Below, in pieces: positions 3,322 to 38,966 of a DNA stretch of 39,625 nucleotides. Location: the IMG/VR virus record IMGVR_UViG_2545824712_000011; one strand, written 5' to 3'. The DNA is from a virus. Its lineage: Duplodnaviria > Heunggongvirae > Uroviricota > Caudoviricetes. The notes beneath the pieces were generated by a model that made no database searches, was not told where the DNA came from, and saw only the letters and a program-made list of their open reading frames with translations. The translations under genes and the position numbers were made by a program. Positions within the stretch are counted from its first letter, which is position 1. Each line of letters opens with the position of its first letter.

Positions 3322-3483
3322 TTACGCGCCAATGCGCCCTTCCTTCTTAAAGCTGTCCATTACTCTCTGATAAATCTCAGAGTTAACAGACCGACCATTC
3401 TCTTCCGCCACCTTGCGTACCAAATCCAATACTTCTTTAGGCCACCGCAAATTGAACTGCGGCATTTTTCTTGCGCCTTGCAT
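3322..3483 (-). CDS. arc: Arc repressor (ribbon-helix-helix)
   Basis: 53 aa [53 protein letters not shown], near-identical to P22 Arc as recalled. Confidence 0.9.
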
Positions 3484-3576
3484 ATTCCACTCCATTCCAT
3501 TAAATGATAGCACCGTACTACTATTGAAAGCGTACTACTACCGTTCTAGCATGTCAACAAATAACAGGAGAGCGAC
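3484..3576. promoter_or_regulatory. immI divergent promoter/operator region (Pant / Pmnt)
   Basis: Intergenic between divergent arc and mnt; contains direct repeat GTACTACTA x2 (CCGTACTACTATTGAAAGCGTACTACTACCG). Confidence 0.55.
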
Positions 3577-3816
3577 GTGGCTAGAAACGATCCACAATTT
3601 AACGTAAGAATGCCAAGTGAAATCAAGCAGCAGCTTACTCACATTGCGGCAACAAACAGGCGCTCTATCAATGCTGAAATCATAGCTGCAATACAGCTAT
3701 GGATTAAGATTAACAGAGAAAAGGTCATACCATCGACATCTCAAGATCTCACAAAAACAGAGAAGGAAGCAATGGATATTGCAATTAGCGTACTTAAGAA
3801 GATTCGAGGCCAATAA
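3577..3816 (+). CDS. mnt: Mnt-like ribbon-helix-helix repressor
   Basis: MARNDPQFNVRMPSEIKQQL... resembles P22 Mnt N-terminus; GTG start with AGGAG 7 nt upstream; divergent from arc. Confidence 0.75.
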   Translation: MARNDPQFNVRMPSEIKQQLTHIAATNRRSINAEIIAAIQLWIKINREKVIPSTSQDLTKTEKEAMDIAISVLKKIRGQ

Positions 3817-4163
3817 TGAGCAGTAAGGAGCAATACTTAAAAGTTACTTTTGAGTCTTTTAGTAATTACTTGACTTCATTCAAAAAAACTTATGTATGCC
3901 CAATATGCAGCAATACAAACTGGACTCTTTTAGCACCTGAGCATCTTAAAAAAGATGATGGTGTTGAAGTTATAGGCCCATCCATACCAGGTAAAAGCTT
4001 GCCTAATAATCCTGTTAATCAAGATACTTATAGCAACGATAGTCTTAACATGGTAGCCATGCAATGCACCACTTGCGGTTTCTTCCACTTTTTTAGTTTA
4101 AACAAAGTTAGTGAAAATATCTCTTCTGGAAAATTCGTAAAGGGTGATGGAGATAATGTTTGA
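3816..4163 (+). CDS. Hypothetical zinc-ribbon protein (CxxC...CxxC), first gene of AT-rich cassette
   Basis: ATG overlaps mnt stop (TAATG); CPIC at residues 28-31 and CTTC at 84-87; about 30-35% G+C by rough count. Confidence 0.6.
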   Translation: MSSKEQYLKVTFESFSNYLTSFKKTYVCPICSNTNWTLLAPEHLKKDDGVEVIGPSIPGKSLPNNPVNQDTYSNDSLNMVAMQCTTCGFFHFFSLNKVSENISSGKFVKGDGDNV

Positions 4164-4656
4164 CCAACATGTTCACAATAAATCACCTAGTATTTATGGA
4201 GATGCTCAAAGCCAACATGAAAACCTTGACTTTGACAAATCGTTATGGAGTTCAATAGAAAACGCTAAATATTCAGAGTATTACAGACCAACTGACAGAA
4301 ATCCGTCAAAGGAACCACAAATATTTAGCCTACAAGAAGAGCAACACAAAGAAGAAGGTCGTGATACCGTGAAACGTTTAGAGCTATACGGGGTTGCAGT
4401 TGCTATCATTGGTTCTATCGTTGCCGCCACATGGACGATTCGAGGCACTATAGATGATAAAGTTGAATCATCACGACAAGAGCTAACAGGAAACATCCAA
4501 ACCAGTAAGGCAGAGATAATGGCTACTATCCAAAACAACCAATCAGTATTACAGTCAAGGATTGATAACACTGATCAAAAATTAGACTCAACAAACCAAT
4601 CTCTTTATAAGGTATTGGCTATATTAGAGTCTCAAAAAGACAAACGTTCTCAATAG
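4144..4656 (+). CDS. Hypothetical single-pass membrane protein with C-terminal coiled-coil-like domain
   Basis: Start overlaps upstream gene (alternative ATG at 4156 overlapping its TGA); hydrophobic segment LELYGVAVAIIGSIVAATWTI; polar heptad-like C-terminal region. Confidence 0.6.
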   Translation: MMEIMFDQHVHNKSPSIYGDAQSQHENLDFDKSLWSSIENAKYSEYYRPTDRNPSKEPQIFSLQEEQHKEEGRDTVKRLELYGVAVAIIGSIVAATWTIRGTIDDKVESSRQELTGNIQTSKAEIMATIQNNQSVLQSRIDNTDQKLDSTNQSLYKVLAILESQKDKRSQ

Positions 4657-4677
4657 TTTCTTGATTTATTACCTATA

Positions 4678-4712
4678 GCTGCATGATTGATGTCTGTTGA
4701 AAATCATGCAGC
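4678..4712. repeat. Perfect 11-bp inverted repeat GCTGCATGATT-N13-AATCATGCAGC
   Basis: Read directly; lies between second and third cassette genes, no T-tract after it. Confidence 0.8.
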
Positions 4713-4736
4713 ATTGATAAATCTAAGGAGATCGGC

Positions 4737-5057
4737 ATGTACATATCGCTCTCTACCATTTTTTTCATCTGCTTAGCTATTTGGCTTTTAAGAATATGGC
4801 AGGATTGCTCTGTCAGCCATGCTGCTGCGGTGAGAAATAAAAACGCCCTCATAAAAGAAGCTGAAAACGTTGTCTTATCAATGGATCACCTTTCATGGAC
4901 CGAGATGACTACAGGGCAACAAGAGGTTTATGAGTGTGCGATTGAGCGGTTAAGGCTGCTTAAATCGTACAAAAAGAACCACGCTCCCGACTCATTCCCA
5001 TTCCTGAAAGAATGGCCGAGATGGTATGACCCGAAAAAAGCAACCATCAACCGCTAA
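4737..5057 (+). CDS. Hypothetical small membrane-anchored protein
   Basis: AAGGAG 8 nt upstream of ATG; N-terminal hydrophobic segment MYISLSTIFFICLAIWLLRIW; stop 8 bp from convergent gp16 stop. Confidence 0.55.
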   Translation: MYISLSTIFFICLAIWLLRIWQDCSVSHAAAVRNKNALIKEAENVVLSMDHLSWTEMTTGQQEVYECAIERLRLLKSYKKNHAPDSFPFLKEWPRWYDPKKATINR

Positions 5058-28562: not shown

Positions 28563-29213
28563 ATGAAAACTCAATTGATGGGAGAGCGCATTCGCGCTCG
28601 GAGAAAAGAACTCAAGATCAGGCAGGCCGCACTTGGAAAGATGGTCGGCGTGTCTAATGTTGCCATATCTCAGTGGGAACGCTCTGAGACAGAGCCAAAT
28701 GGAGAGAATCTTCTCGCCCTGGCTAATGCGTTGAAGTGTTCCCCTGACTATCTGATGAAAGGAGAGGAAAGTCTTTCAAATATTGCCTATCACAGTAGGC
28801 ATGATCCAAGAGGGTCATACCCTCTGATTAGCTGGGTGAGCGCAGGATGCTGGATGGAAGCTGTAGAACCATATCATAAGCGTGCAATAGATAACTGGTA
28901 CGATACAACCGTAGACTGTTCAGAAGATTCGTTTTGGTTGGACGTGAAGGGAGACTCAATGACGGCTCCGGCCGGTCTCAGTATCCCTGAAGGAATGATA
29001 ATACTCGTCGATCCTGAAGTAGAGCCGCGTAACGGGAAACTGGTAGTTGCAAAGCTCGAAGGAGAAAACGAGGCAACTTTCAAGAAGTTAGTTATTGATG
29101 CAGGCAGGAAGTTTCTAAAACCACTTAACCCACAATATCCGATGATCGAGATCAACGGAAACTGCAAAATCATCGGCGTAGTTGTCGATGCAAAACTAGC
29201 AAACCTTCCATAA
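28563..29213 (+). CDS. c2: Prophage repressor C2 (P22 type, LexA-like C-terminal domain)
   Basis: MKTQLMGERIRARRKELKIRQAALGKMVGVSNVAISQWERSETEPNGENL... near-identical to P22 C2 as recalled. Confidence 0.95.
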   Translation: MKTQLMGERIRARRKELKIRQAALGKMVGVSNVAISQWERSETEPNGENLLALANALKCSPDYLMKGEESLSNIAYHSRHDPRGSYPLISWVSAGCWMEAVEPYHKRAIDNWYDTTVDCSEDSFWLDVKGDSMTAPAGLSIPEGMIILVDPEVEPRNGKLVVAKLEGENEATFKKLVIDAGRKFLKPLNPQYPMIEINGNCKIIGVVVDAKLANLP

Positions 29214-29237
29214 GGGGGCATTCGCCCCTTTTTTTTA
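29214..29237 (+). terminator. Intrinsic terminator after c2
   Basis: GGGGGC-ATTC-GCCCC followed by TTTTTTTT. Confidence 0.75.
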
Positions 29238-29254: not shown

Positions 29255-29340
29255 AGCCAAACTTAAGTTACGAAAGAAAATTTAAGTTTTCTTCAAAAAT
29301 ACTCTTGACCATTAATTAAAGAGATCTTAAATTTAAGCCA
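29255..29340 (+). promoter_or_regulatory. OL / PL
   Basis: TTAAG operator-like repeats; TTGACC (29305-29310), 17 bp spacer, TAAATT (29328-29333). Confidence 0.55.
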
Positions 29341-29379
29341 TCAGCAGGACGCTGGTAGCCAAACGGAACAGATTGGCAG

Positions 29380-29420
29380 GCTCTTTAACATTGATGGGAT
29401 TGTCCCGCCGAAATGCGGGA
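29380..29420 (+). promoter_or_regulatory. nutL (boxA GCTCTTTAACA, boxB TCCCGC-CGAAAT-GCGGGA)
   Basis: Same boxA/boxB as nutR, upstream of N. Confidence 0.7.
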
Positions 29421-29778
29421 ACTGAGTTTAACCAAACAGGAGGTGCCGTAATGGTGCACTAACGCGGTTAGACCGCAGCCGAAAGGCAATGCAGCAGTAA
29501 TGATGCTGCCCCGAGTCGCGTAATGGCGAGCAGGTTTAGCAGACCGATGTGAGGGTAAATAAGGGAACATGCTCCGGAAAGGCAGCGCGAATGCCAGACG
29601 CGCACCGGTTATCAGCGGCTAATAAGCGACAGAGACTCAAGGGCATGAGCGCGCTCACTGCGAGAGTGTGAGTCAAAGAGTAGTTGGCTTTGGGGTGACG
29701 TGAAGTGCAGCTGCACGACGGCAACCGGAAGATAAGCACCCGGCGCGTCACCGCCAAAGTCAATCATCGGAGGTCAAC

Positions 29779-30078
29779 ATGACAGTAGTCATTACATATC
29801 TGGCTGACGATAACGCCAGAAATCGCCGCAGAGCACGCAGACAGGCTCAACGTGAACAGGCAATGCAAGAGCAGCGACTGGCGCGAAAAATTGCGCTAAA
29901 GCTCTCTGGTTGCGTCAGAGCAGATAAAGCAGCATCACTCGGAAGCCTTCGCTGCAAGAAGGCAGAAGAAATCGAGCGTAAACAGAATCGTATTTACTAC
30001 CGCAAGCCACGCAGTGAAATGGGTGTGACTTGTGTTGGTCGCCAGAAAATGAAATTAGGCAGCAAACCACTTATTTGA
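29779..30078 (+). CDS. Antiterminator N-like protein (arginine-rich motif)
   Basis: N-terminal ARM DNARNRRRARRQAQREQ; located downstream of PL/nutL. Confidence 0.75.
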   Translation: MTVVITYLADDNARNRRRARRQAQREQAMQEQRLARKIALKLSGCVRADKAASLGSLRCKKAEEIERKQNRIYYRKPRSEMGVTCVGRQKMKLGSKPLI

Positions 30079-30086
30079 GGTGAGAT

Positions 30087-30557
30087 ATGACAAAATCATG
30101 GAGCGTACCTTTTCCTGAATCAGAAACTGAACATGATGGAATGCCTGTTTTCTGGAGATTCCAAGCGACAGTTGAAGAAGATGGAATCAAAATATTCGCA
30201 CTTCAATATATAGCTTTTCATCAGACAGAGCATTATGCATGGTTGGTTCCTGCGCATTGGATTGTTAATTTTAAACCAGCACCAAATCAGTGGTTACAGG
30301 AATGGAAACAAAGGAGAAATAGATATGCAATTAAGAAAGTAGCAAAAAATGCAGAAAGATCTTTTGCATTCCCAACGAAGAAACTTGCCATTGAGAGTTT
30401 ATTGCGCCGGAAGAAATACCATTTAATGAGAATCAAACAAGATTTGGCTGTTGTATCAACTCTTGTTGATGGGATGAAGAATATTGATACATCAACACCA
30501 GATATTGAATATAACTTTGGGCACAACCAAGAAACAGAAAATTGGGTATTTTATTAG
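30087..30557 (+). CDS. Hypothetical protein, AT-rich moron downstream of N
   Basis: 156-aa ORF, start 9 nt after N stop with GAGG upstream; low G+C; no recognisable motif. Confidence 0.55.
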   Translation: MTKSWSVPFPESETEHDGMPVFWRFQATVEEDGIKIFALQYIAFHQTEHYAWLVPAHWIVNFKPAPNQWLQEWKQRRNRYAIKKVAKNAERSFAFPTKKLAIESLLRRKKYHLMRIKQDLAVVSTLVDGMKNIDTSTPDIEYNFGHNQETENWVFY

Positions 30558-30617
30558 TACGAGTAAGCACTGTGTATTCATTCCAACGAGTGAATACACG
30601 GAGCAATGTCGCTCGTA
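30558..30617 (+). promoter_or_regulatory. Nested inverted repeats (outer TACGAG/CTCGTA, inner 9-bp GTGTATTCA/TGAATACAC)
   Basis: Read directly, immediately after the moron stop. Confidence 0.6.
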
Positions 30618-30661
30618 ACTAAACAGGAGCCGACTTGTTCTGATTATTGGAAATCTTCTTT

Positions 30662-30688
30662 GCCCTCCAGTGTGAGGGCCTTTTTATA
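30662..30688 (+). terminator. tL1-like intrinsic terminator
   Basis: GCCCTC-CAGTGT-GAGGGC followed by CTTTTTAT; a second weaker hairpin plus T-tract at about 30701-30728. Confidence 0.7.
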
Positions 30689-30751
30689 TGCATACCAATA
30701 ACGCTTCACTCGAGGCGTTTTCGTTATGCAATCAAACAGAAGGAGCATCCT

Positions 30752-30922
30752 ATGCAACAGTTCGCTATTGCAGGGGCGGCATCGGTTCGCCCTTTCAACC
30801 CGATTTTATCGGTACAGCATTCACGAAAAAATATTTTAACCGGAGCAGACTTTAAACAACCAAGAATGAAAAGTTTGCTCGAAAAGCTTTGGGATATTTT
30901 GAAACAACAAGGCCGTCCATGA
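30752..30922 (+). CDS. CIII-like protein (candidate FtsH inhibitor)
   Basis: MQQFAIAG... and SLLEKLWDILKQQGRP resemble lambda CIII (MQYAIAG..., LLERITRKL...LIDILNQPGVP); AGGAG upstream. Confidence 0.5.
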   Translation: MQQFAIAGAASVRPFNPILSVQHSRKNILTGADFKQPRMKSLLEKLWDILKQQGRP

Positions 30923-31077
30923 GTTTTACAGATAACTGGTCAGACGAAGAATTCATTCGTCAGATGAAAGATTTAATCGGTAACGAAGGAGATATTCATG
31001 TCACTTGCAACCACAGTGAAGGAGAGCAAGTTACAGAGACGCATGTACACGCAGAAAGCTCTCTGGTATCGCCATAA
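30919..31077 (+). CDS. Small hypothetical protein
   Basis: 52-aa ORF, ATG overlapping cIII-like stop (ATGA). Confidence 0.4.
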   Translation: MSFTDNWSDEEFIRQMKDLIGNEGDIHVTCNHSEGEQVTETHVHAESSLVSP

Positions 31078-31176
31078 TGGTGACCGCGAAGGAATGCGGG
31101 TATGCCTTAATTTGTCCCGAGTCGAAGTATTAAATCAGCGTTATTTCCTTGGGCCATGTCCATTCTGAGGTGAATT

Positions 31177-37630: not shown

Positions 37631-38378
37631 GATGACAGGACTAGATGCGTTTTATAACGAGTCAGAAGATAAAATCTGGTTTGGTAATCTGATCAGCGAA
37701 CTGGCAAGACTAAACAATGAAAATGAAAGAATGATAGCTGCCGCTATCTTAAGTAACTACAGATTGAGCAAGACTAAACCAGATACTTTAGGGGGGCTGG
37801 GCTTTTATCAGTTCGATTGGGTATCTGGTTTTACGACAAATGAAGACTTTGAAAAGCAGTGTGTGGAGTTTTTAGGTCTTCTGGCTATGGGGCATGAATA
37901 CAGGGAGAGCCCGATACCGGGGGAAGAAGGGACTTTCAACGTTAGGAAAGGAGAAGACTTTTTATATCACGATGATGAGGATGATTGGTATGGGTCTTAC
38001 GATTCGTTTTATTTCAAGCGATCCGAGGTTGTGAACTTCTTCCCAGAACTGGATATGAATGTTCCAGATAACGAACCAGAAATTGGAGCACTGTCAAAAA
38101 AAGTAGAAAGAGAACAAAACTGGAGAGGAAAAGATACGGCTTTAAAGATGATCGCCGGAATGGCGATTGCCTTATTTGAATCAAGCAAAGATTTCCATAG
38201 TGGAGGAAACCTTAGTATCAATAGGGTTAGTGCCCAAGTAATAGAAAACAACATAATATTCGGGAACGATGAAGACAGCGATACCCACCCAGATACATTT
38301 CGGAGATTGCTAACGAACGCTTTGGATAAGTACGCCCCCAAATTTAAGAACAAAGCAACCAAAAAGCGTCCAAAATAA
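37623..38378 (+). CDS. Hypothetical 251-aa protein co-transcribed with int
   Basis: Start overlaps int stop (GTG 37623 or ATG 37632); acidic, no recognisable motif. Confidence 0.55.
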   Translation: MTKMTGLDAFYNESEDKIWFGNLISELARLNNENERMIAAAILSNYRLSKTKPDTLGGLGFYQFDWVSGFTTNEDFEKQCVEFLGLLAMGHEYRESPIPGEEGTFNVRKGEDFLYHDDEDDWYGSYDSFYFKRSEVVNFFPELDMNVPDNEPEIGALSKKVEREQNWRGKDTALKMIAGMAIALFESSKDFHSGGNLSINRVSAQVIENNIIFGNDEDSDTHPDTFRRLLTNALDKYAPKFKNKATKKRPK

Positions 38379-38534
38379 AGGAAGGATGTTCCCAAATTGT
38401 GCGTTAGAACTAAAAAATAACGCCCAATTTGGGGTAATTCTATTCCCAAAAATTTTTTCTCCAAATTCACAGAAAACTTAAAAAAACAATGATTTACTAT
38501 CTCACATAGTCAAGCAACGTATTACGAGGTAGAT

Positions 38535-38726
38535 ATGAAAAAGTCGCTGATTCGGCTATCTGAGGTTTTGAAACGCACTGGCTATAGCAAGGCGTGGGTA
38601 TATGCTCTGATGAGCCGAGGACAATTCCCCCAATCAGTCAAGATTGGTGCTCGCGCAATAGCTTTTATTGAAAGCGAGATCGATGACTGGATCGATCAAC
38701 GTATAGCCGAATCGCGTAGCAACTAA
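38535..38726 (+). CDS. alpA: AlpA-family transcriptional regulator
   Basis: LIRLSEVLKRTGYSKAWVYALMSRGQFPQSVKIGARAIAFIESEIDDWI typical AlpA HTH. Confidence 0.8.
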   Translation: MKKSLIRLSEVLKRTGYSKAWVYALMSRGQFPQSVKIGARAIAFIESEIDDWIDQRIAESRSN

Positions 38727-38774
38727 AGAACAGAAACAAACAGGATACAAACAATACGTTATTAGGTATTAAGA

Positions 38775-38966
38775 ATGCAGTTGAAACCTACCAATCAAAA
38801 GCTGAACGTAACCCATGTTGATTTTGAAACCTTCGCGGCACTGATTAGATCAGAGCCACAAAAGGTGAGCACCAGCACCAGGGTTTATGATGTGAAATCC
38901 ACCAGCGGTGGAAAAGCTATCGGCATTGCCTCTGGCGATGATTACTTAGTAATAGATCTGATTTAA
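38775..38966 (+). CDS. Hypothetical protein
   Basis: 63-aa ORF downstream of alpA. Confidence 0.4.
   Translation: MQLKPTNQKLNVTHVDFETFAALIRSEPQKVSTSTRVYDVKSTSGGKAIGIASGDDYLVIDLI

Follow-up and report, generated by a model that had tools for sequence, protein, structure and literature searches.

ORF156, a conserved accessory gene of the early-left operon in a P22-like Escherichia coli prophage, and the RNA cassette behind it

Lambdoid prophages keep a variable accessory slot behind the antiterminator gene N of their early-left (pL) operon, and the locus described here raises the question of what kind of gene fills that slot and whether the hairpins that follow belong to it. The locus lies in IMG/VR record IMGVR_UViG_2545824712_000011, a stretch of 39,625 nucleotides (nt) which was analysed as a whole and is referred to as the window, and its occupant is an open reading frame (ORF) of 156 amino acids (aa), termed ORF156. 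An earlier note, made from the DNA letters, had described it as a single-gene, A+T-rich moron. ORF156 is shown to be a genuine accessory gene of the pL operon, conserved, and the same gene as HK97 gene 45 and 933W L0079. It is already sequenced and present in databases, with no assigned function, and in kind it is an ordinary accessory gene of a lambdoid early-left operon. The structured RNA cassette behind it is a separate, shared module homologous to the lambda ral-ea10 spacer.

The gene and its family

Over residues 1-156, ORF156 matches PHROG 1636 (E = 2.7e-112), a family annotated as being of unknown function. Its DNA is 99.2% identical to HK97 gene 45 (NP_037731) and 98.7% identical to 933W L0079 (NP_049479), the latter encoding a 100% identical protein at ~1.3% nucleotide difference. 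The gene was found in 82 phage records, mainly Shiga toxin (Stx1- or Stx2-) converting phages and H-19B, most phage copies showing 1-2% DNA difference and 100% protein identity, the latter holding for most of 88 phage records. Divergence of the DNA with an unchanged protein indicates that ORF156 is under purifying selection. A query composed of the gene and its cassette was held to at least 80% by 563 of 5,426 complete E. coli genomes, and the gene is thus carried, besides HK97, 933W and many Stx1 and Stx2 phages, by at least ~10% of complete genomes of this species.

The family extends well outside E. coli. Pectobacterium, Brenneria, Cronobacter and Rosenbergiella have homologues of 55-85% identity, and a profile search of 1.8 billion representatives returned 87 cluster representatives, the distant members being ~130-155 aa long at 20-25% identity. 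The range covers lambdoid prophages as well as N4-like and myovirus-type phages. All annotated copies bear the label 'hypothetical protein', and every PHROG related to ORF156 is of unknown function.

The absence of a recognised motif, claimed by the earlier note, needs dividing: there is no homology to a gene of defined function, yet the gene itself is a known one. None of 69 aligned family members has a Pfam match at E up to 10, and searches of NCBIfam and of the PDB sequences with ORF156 gave no match. In PADLOC-DB only a spurious Cas1_II match was obtained (E = 0.018, 12 bits), with no defence-system profile reached. No Ral family stands among the PHROG, Pfam and NCBIfam matches. The literature searched for HK97 gp45 and L0079, for their accessions and locus tags and for screens of anti-defence genes yielded nothing on function.

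The A+T-rich composition claimed for the gene is borne out. ORF156 has 36.1% G+C, with 28% at third codon positions, against a window mean of 46.8%, and just 0.84% of equally long (471-nt) sliding windows are as low. N has 48.7% and the Rad52-like gene 48.2%. By its own account the earlier note would have been refuted by homology to a known N-operon gene of defined function, or by G+C and codon usage like those of the neighbours; no homology to any gene of defined function was found and the composition is deviant, so that neither applies. Three other A+T-rich islands of the window, at 441-1622, 3421-5012 and 38001-38832, contain 471-nt windows below 39% G+C; they are as deviant as ORF156 and may hold further accessory or horizontally acquired genes.

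A first AlphaFold2 model, built on an alignment of 20 close homologues, reached a pLDDT (predicted local distance difference test) of 59.5 and was replaced by one from the 69-sequence alignment, for which pLDDT rose to 95.9 with a predicted template modelling score (pTM) of 0.83. In this model, strands at residues 19-30, 33-46 and 50-55 precede short helices at 56-61 and 66-74, followed by a small hairpin (83-95), a 33-residue basic helix (98-130) and an ordered C-terminal tail. ORF156 is thereby shown, at the level of prediction, to be a small basic alpha/beta protein with an N-terminal beta-sheet. Profile and structure searches, which the earlier note had proposed, matched no gene of defined function. 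No significant structural superposition was obtained with small beta-barrels of Tudor, SH3 or KOW-like type. The viral model library BFVD gave 12 matches with E < 1e-3, all to uncharacterised proteins, from Erwinia, Achromobacter, Delftia, Rhizobium, Sinorhizobium, Tenacibaculum and Cellulophaga phages, N4-like phages included. Relative to solved structures, the novelty of the predicted fold is firmly shown.

The family is basic: its median isoelectric point (pI) is 8.9, with no member below 6 and none acidic. Lysine or arginine is conserved at positions 24, 75, 76, 83, 84, 87, 92, 98, 108 and 109, and the net charge over residues 56-130 is +12. Conservation in at least 90% of the family is confined to G33, T47, K87 and A101, and there is therefore no enzyme-like catalytic signature. 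A membrane segment or a motif of nuclease or ATPase type was looked for in ORF156 and not found.

A basic family with such a central segment could serve inside the phage itself, as a DNA- or RNA-binding helper in recombination, replication initiation, or early transcription and antitermination. This explanation is doubtful. Two candidate domains, both suspected from an RFAFxTKEEA strand-helix motif, were rejected by profile comparison at a probability below 1%: an AP2 domain scored 0.4% in hhalign and the N-terminal arm-type DNA-binding domain of a lambda-type Int 0.8%, the targets being single sequences, which limited sensitivity. The placement of the gene, considered in the next section, bears on the helper role from both sides.

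Position, expression and mobility within the early-left operon

A P22-like (Lederbergvirus-type) E. coli prophage makes up the window, and its virion genes are of HK620/Sf6-like type. Around ORF156 the plus strand is the direction of the early-left operon, while cII and cro lie on the minus strand. The features from cI to the end of the cIII-like gene, other than those of the cassette, are as follows.

28563-29213: cI, followed by a terminator at 29212-29231
29305-29333, plus strand: probable pL (TTGACC-17-TAAATT), between the terminator after cI and the nutL-like block
29380-29416, plus strand: nutL-like site, with boxA GCTCTTTAAC and the boxB hairpin CCCGC-cgaaat-GCGGG
29779-30078, plus strand: N-type antiterminator gene, 99 aa (PHROG 271, E = 7e-37; Pfam N_peptide weak)
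30025-30086, plus strand: left joint of the mobile module, made up of ~55 nt from the end of N with the linker and the ribosome-binding site (TTATTTGAGGTGAGAT)
30087-30557, plus strand: ORF156, 156 aa, HK97 gp45 / 933W L0079 family (PHROG 1636), predicted basic alpha/beta protein
30690-30751, plus strand: cIII leader module, with the cIII Shine-Dalgarno sequence at 30740-30745 and terminator 2 within it
30752-30922, plus strand: cIII-like gene (PHROG 550, E = 1e-22)

The earlier note had thus placed ORF156 correctly, directly after N, and was also right in recognising N (PHROG 271) and the cIII-like gene downstream (PHROG 550). The start codon of ORF156 lies 8 nt past the N stop codon (TGA, 30076-30078), which is overlapped by the Shine-Dalgarno sequence GAGGTGAG at 30077-30084. 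Promoters were sought by consensus scan. Upstream of ORF156 the probable pL is the sole promoter-like site on the plus strand, with no sigma-70-like site between it (29305-29333) and the ORF156 start codon. Nor did the scan show a terminator-like site between pL and 30662; the first intrinsic terminators past pL, at 30662 and 30700, are both behind ORF156. From the single promoter-like site, the lack of a terminator before 30662 and the translational linkage to N, we infer that ORF156 is transcribed from pL and translated together with N at the immediate-early stage, before N antitermination is needed. In the repressed prophage it would be silent.

Joints were compared in 80 IMG/VR loci encoding the identical protein, plus HK97, 933W, phi367 and 611R6 (numbers prefixed L in the following are labels of compared loci). 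On the left, 31 of the 80 have their joint at the last ~55 nt of N (30008-30026), 17 within the last third of N and 15 at the linker and ribosome-binding site only, and 17 are contiguous with the N allele of the window. HK97 and 933W retain the left-joint stretch as a 58-nt non-coding remnant behind a different N allele. On the right, the joint falls just past terminator 1 (30685-30689) in 43 loci and at the stop codon in 10, and similarity runs on into the cIII module in 20. Related phages may carry or lack ORF156 at this one slot. Its module is found together with no fewer than three N alleles, and with recombination modules of the Red, Erf, RecT or Rad52 type.

Other phages fill the slot differently: lambda with ral, Sakai Sp5 with ECs_1180 and Sakai Sp15 with a sieB-like gene on the opposite strand, a sieB-like gene also being present in PA28. 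ORF156 is lacking in lambda, P22, Sp5 and Sp15, and the Sakai strain, for which Hfq-CRAC data exist, is without the gene. In phi367 a separately annotated ral is followed by the ORF156 gene within one slot; therefore ORF156 is not simply an alternative to ral. The variable slot that the earlier note had pictured is confirmed, as is the variable occupancy at the locus, with recurrent joints, that it had suggested examining.

The related loci are built as cassette arrays, in which a linker AATTATTTGAGGTGAGATATG lies ahead of each small gene and a terminator of its own behind it, followed by a CA-rich linker GGCATAAACAACAGAATAAACACTGCACTG. The linker with the ribosome-binding site (window 30071-30089) recurs before extra genes in L011 (2133-2500), L035 (2690-3010) and L019 (2270-3010). 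The CA-rich linker, which is absent from the window, resembles a GcvB-target or Hfq ARN motif. Directly after the stop codon of the gene, a private hairpin GGCCG-catagt-CGGCC with a T run is present in L018, L033, L042, L045 and L046. In L018, L033, L042 and L064 (~3472-4023; also L024 and L037), two extra uncharacterised small genes (94-98 aa, then 52 to 70 aa) stand behind the gene and its private terminator, inserted exactly between the stop codon and the first stem-loop of the RNA cassette (SL1). ORF156 is shown to belong to a set of cassettes, alternative or stackable, that occupy the slot from N to ea10 or cIII.

Farther afield, Pectobacterium and Brenneria prophages carry the homologue just upstream of xis-int instead, and distant members belong either to early operons, where they are flanked by recombination genes and int, or to the early gene clusters of phages of virulent type. 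Among their recombination neighbours are YqaJ, SSB, RdgC and RecE. An orphan DNA methyltransferase lies 0.3-2.5 kb away in the same orientation in 4 of 7 distant contexts (L005, L007, L009, L221).

For a phage-internal nucleic-acid-binding helper, this constant residence in early-left operons, beside or between recombination genes and int, is a point in favour, as is the direct adjacency to N in the window. The gene is nevertheless dispensable and patchy, as the four phages without it attest; it is tied to no N allele or recombinase type, and its position varies (after N, after ral, before xis).

The moron claim of the earlier note can be weighed on the same evidence. ORF156 is indeed a single accessory gene of deviant composition, but the consensus scan gave it no promoter of its own and it sits 8 nt from N. 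As a true moron, ORF156 would be expressed in the lysogen for superinfection exclusion or abortive infection, like sieB, an explanation which is improbable. Its G+C of 36%, the sieB-like exclusion genes of Sakai Sp15 and PA28 in the same slot and the terminator behind the gene in some relatives are in keeping with it. Against it, beyond the promoter scan and the closeness of N, the gene runs in the direction of the repressor-controlled pL, whereas the sieB-like gene of Sp15 is on the opposite strand; the negative PADLOC, membrane-segment and nuclease- or ATPase-motif searches described above offer no support. Because homologues occur in virulent-type phages (Pantoea LIET2, and the BFVD matches in N4-like phages), a lysogen-protecting role would make no sense for those family members.

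Two further features of the operon merit description. The nutL-like region, block 29333-29422, is kept in many related loci, and between it and N the leader contains a block of ~251 nt (29423-29673, plus strand; G+C ~0.55-0.57) which many related loci lack, 29422 being joined there directly to 29674. The block contains several GNRA-type loops; as a structured RNA it was rejected, with a folding z of -0.49 and no Rfam match. Downstream of cIII come two small HK97-like genes, a Rad52-type annealing protein and SSB. The two small genes, overlapping ORFs at 30889-31077 and 30998-31168 (plus strand), are counterparts of HK97 gp42 and gp42.1 and match PHROGs 2123 and 1723. Both PHROGs are labelled 'recombinase', which looks like annotation carry-over rather than a demonstrated function.

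The RNA cassette behind the gene

Immediately past the stop codon of ORF156 the transcript enters a densely structured region, whose elements are listed here.

30558-30563, plus strand: left arm of the outer repeat, TACGAG, with the right arm CTCGTA at 30612-30617
30567-30604, plus strand: SL1, the inner hairpin (14 stem positions, loop of 10 nt); first element of the cassette
30605-30621, plus strand: near-invariant linker AATGTCGCTCGTAACTA, holding CTCGTA and the boxA-like CGCTCGTAA (30610-30618)
30622-30639, plus strand: SL2, AACAGG-agccga-CTTGTT
30640-30661, plus strand: U-rich single-stranded spacer of the cassette
30662-30685, plus strand: terminator 1, GCCCTC-cagtgt-GAGGGC, then T5
30700-30719, plus strand: terminator 2, 8 pairs, then the interrupted T tract TTTTCGTT

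Compared with shuffled sequences, the 208-nt intergenic RNA folds at z = -5.35 and the 138-nt cassette alone at z = -4.61, and the surrounding 2-kb region has 7 terminator-like sites against 2.5 +/- 1.7 in shuffles. The cassette proper spans ~30564-30685, and 30567-30689 is 97.6% identical over 123 nt to lambda J02459 33923-34045, in the ral-ea10 spacer. The same ~120 nt recur in 933W, in HK97 and in Sakai Sp5, there behind ECs_1180. In all, 385 phage records contain the cassette, as do 2,238 of 5,426 E. coli genomes with up to 6 copies each, and it follows at least 8 different upstream contexts. The left edge, ~CGAATAA-GCAC, provides the preceding gene with its stop codon in several of these contexts. 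On this point the earlier note has to be corrected: the hairpins and terminators that it had taken as a property of the insertion include SL1 and terminator 1, which form a lambda-type cassette also present behind ral, ECs_1180 and other genes.

Of the nested inverted repeat described in that note, both stems exist at the positions given for them, and only the inner one has wider standing. The outer stem is unconserved and confined to a minority of copies; since most copies behind the gene read TACGAA and other contexts are without the left arm, it is best seen as incidental. TACGAG is probably a remnant of the CGAATAA end that is common to other cassette genes.

SL1 behaves quite differently. 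Four unrelated stem sequences (the common E. coli type, L024/ST-32, ST104 and S135/SEN22) occupy the same 14 positions between the same flanks, and the common type differs from each of the others by 7-9 pairs altered on both sides. With the partners in register, 92.5% of alignment cells pair, against 26-44% with slid partners. Compensatory changes affect 8 of the 14 pairs and the covariation score was reached by 0 of 500 shuffles, in a set of ten sequences comprising only four independent stem types. SL2 is paired in 100% of cells, with one double and two single changes, and covaries with the AACGAG/CTCGTT of Salmonella P22-like phages. SL1 is thus clearly selected as a structure and, with four unrelated isosteric stems, a function at the RNA level is likely.

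Terminator 1, with 6 pairs (5 of them G-C) followed by CTTTTT, qualifies as an intrinsic terminator, and HK97 annotates a putative terminator at this site. In other phages it is swapped for different hairpins with the T run always kept, and whatever module lies downstream is attached just where its stem ends. Both hairpins of the tandem terminators reported earlier are present; the second, however, is weak, because its T tract is interrupted and its stem is degraded in the Salmonella relatives S135 and SEN22. The cIII leader module lies behind ea10 in 933W (79% identity) and is common to S135 and SEN22, and terminator 2 is, by this distribution, part of that module and travels with it. The tandem arrangement would then follow from the lack of ea10 here, which brings two modules together.

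Several known RNA elements were considered for the cassette. The boxA-like CGCTCGTAA matches lambda boxA at 8 of 9 positions and stands 3 nt before SL2, in a nut-like arrangement. A relaxed boxA pattern occurs twice in the window against 1.05 expected, which is not statistically distinctive; SL2 is unlike the boxB of the window's phage, and phages that differ in their N allele carry an identical cassette. Rfam has no family match to the cassette region at E up to 1. Identity with the small RNAs AgvB, AsxR or Pas was rejected, as these lie in the late PR'/Q region and the cassette has no Rfam match, and EcOnc20 and EcOnc22 (Tree et al.) are located elsewhere, in the pL leader and in the tail region. 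A pseudoknot between the loop and the downstream sequence (ACGAG with CUCGU) was discarded since a connector of 7 nt cannot span a 14-bp helix.

A separate observation comes from Sakai Sp5 (L212 1040-1235, minus strand), where ECs1180, the alternative post-N gene, has the cassette as its 3' end. ECs1180 ranks 22nd among Hfq-crosslinked mRNAs in Sakai (Tree et al. 2014 supplement, PMC4104026), which suggests an abundant Hfq-bound RNA from this region in uninduced cultures.

Taken together, these data raise the possibility that the RNA cassette, and not the protein, is the most constrained element of the locus, as a cis-acting processing or stability signal. The case is evenly balanced, and it is compatible with any of the explanations offered for ORF156. 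The near-identity to lambda and the wide spread over phages and E. coli genomes speak for it, as do the many unrelated genes that precede the cassette, the isosteric versions of SL1 with their compensatory changes, the covariation of SL2 and a layout like that of small RNAs, in which a stem-loop at the 5' end is followed by a U-rich stretch and then an intrinsic terminator. The crosslinking of ECs1180 is the one experimental hint, and the cassette may also give rise to a stable RNA, bound by Hfq and derived from the 3' untranslated region of the preceding gene. The Hfq signal is, however, assigned to ECs1180 and not resolved to the cassette, which has neither an Rfam match nor a promoter of its own by consensus; its conservation could reflect use as a homologous-recombination linker between modules, and the small number of independent stem types weakens the covariation argument. 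The cassette ends the unantiterminated transcript and probably also acts as an RNA processing or stability signal.

Proposed role and comparison with known systems

Turning back to the protein, apparent co-timing with N, the first protein of the lytic programme, and a confidently predicted fold with no solved relative make ORF156 a reasonable candidate for a new host-directed or anti-defence activity. It is proposed that ORF156, made together with N from pL, would bind nucleic acid or a host protein without catalysis and so be of help when lytic growth of the phage is only just beginning. The likeliest roles would be counter-defence or host takeover, like those of its slot-mate ral and of neighbouring anti-RecBCD genes. 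This account of ORF156 as an immediate-early, non-catalytic binding protein, even with its established identity counted in, is preferred tentatively and at somewhat less than even confidence; the molecular function taken by itself is speculative and held with low confidence.

A number of considerations weigh against it. No experiment or homology links the protein to a function, and neither of two accessory-gene screens has the protein, by accession or peptide, in its supplements. The idea of counter-defence draws solely on position, timing and charge, and the basic charge would fit DNA or RNA binding in a regulatory or recombination role equally well. The structure is a prediction, the scans behind the proposed timing are blind to a Rho-dependent terminator or a non-consensus promoter, and the association with orphan methyltransferases may mean nothing because such genes are common in early regions. 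A bolder version, in which ORF156 is the founding and experimentally tractable example of small, basic proteins that form a widespread phage family and have an unsolved fold, acting in immediate-early counter-defence or host takeover through a new binding mechanism, and in which the cassette is separately an unrecognised structured regulatory RNA of the pL operon, is unlikely.

ORF156 is attractive as a tractable unknown that combines a confidently predicted new fold with presence in medically relevant phages, and it is directly testable in well-established genetic systems; should its protein prove a minor helper, it would be ordinary phage 'dark matter'. The post-N slot illustrates how short linkers and terminators punctuate stackable gene cassettes, and a 120-nt spacer shared with lambda, with a hairpin under clear structural selection, bears on the shuffling of lambdoid accessory genes and on the processing of early transcripts.

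Among known systems, HK97 gp45 and 933W L0079 are the closest: like ORF156 they have 156 aa, come after N and are followed by this cassette. They differ in the junction, as ORF156 is fused directly to the N allele that HK97 and 933W keep only as the 58-nt non-coding remnant. Lambda ral, the sieB-like genes and ECs_1180 share the operon, the slot and the downstream cassette with ORF156, and are likewise small and dispensable for basic growth. Lambda Ral, however, has 66 aa against 156 aa, and no sequence or profile similarity between the two was found.

The lambda ral-ea10 spacer has SL1, the linker, SL2 and the terminator hairpin in common with the window. Lambda has ral, then another terminator and a CA-rich linker ahead of the cassette and ea10 behind it, whereas in the window the cassette stands directly behind ORF156 and leads into the cIII leader, ea10 being absent. 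Luk and Szybalski reportedly mapped the tL2 terminator cluster to the ral-ea10 interval. With AgvB and AsxR, Hfq-binding small RNAs encoded by prophages of enterohaemorrhagic E. coli at the PR' moron site of the late region (Tree et al. 2014, PMC4104026), the cassette shares a small-RNA-like layout, residence in lambdoid prophages and, in Sakai Sp5, a strongly Hfq-crosslinked transcript. It differs from them in lying on the early pL operon side and in having no Rfam match to either.

A moron in the strict sense has its own promoter and terminator and is expressed from the repressed prophage, as described for HK97 gene 15 (Juhala et al. 2000, summarised in PMC3594210). ORF156 resembles that type in being an extra gene relative to related genomes, in its deviant G+C and in its horizontal spread. 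In contrast to it, ORF156 has no promoter of its own by consensus and lies within the repressor-controlled pL operon, its translation being linked to that of N; the terminator behind it in the window is an element of the shared spacer.

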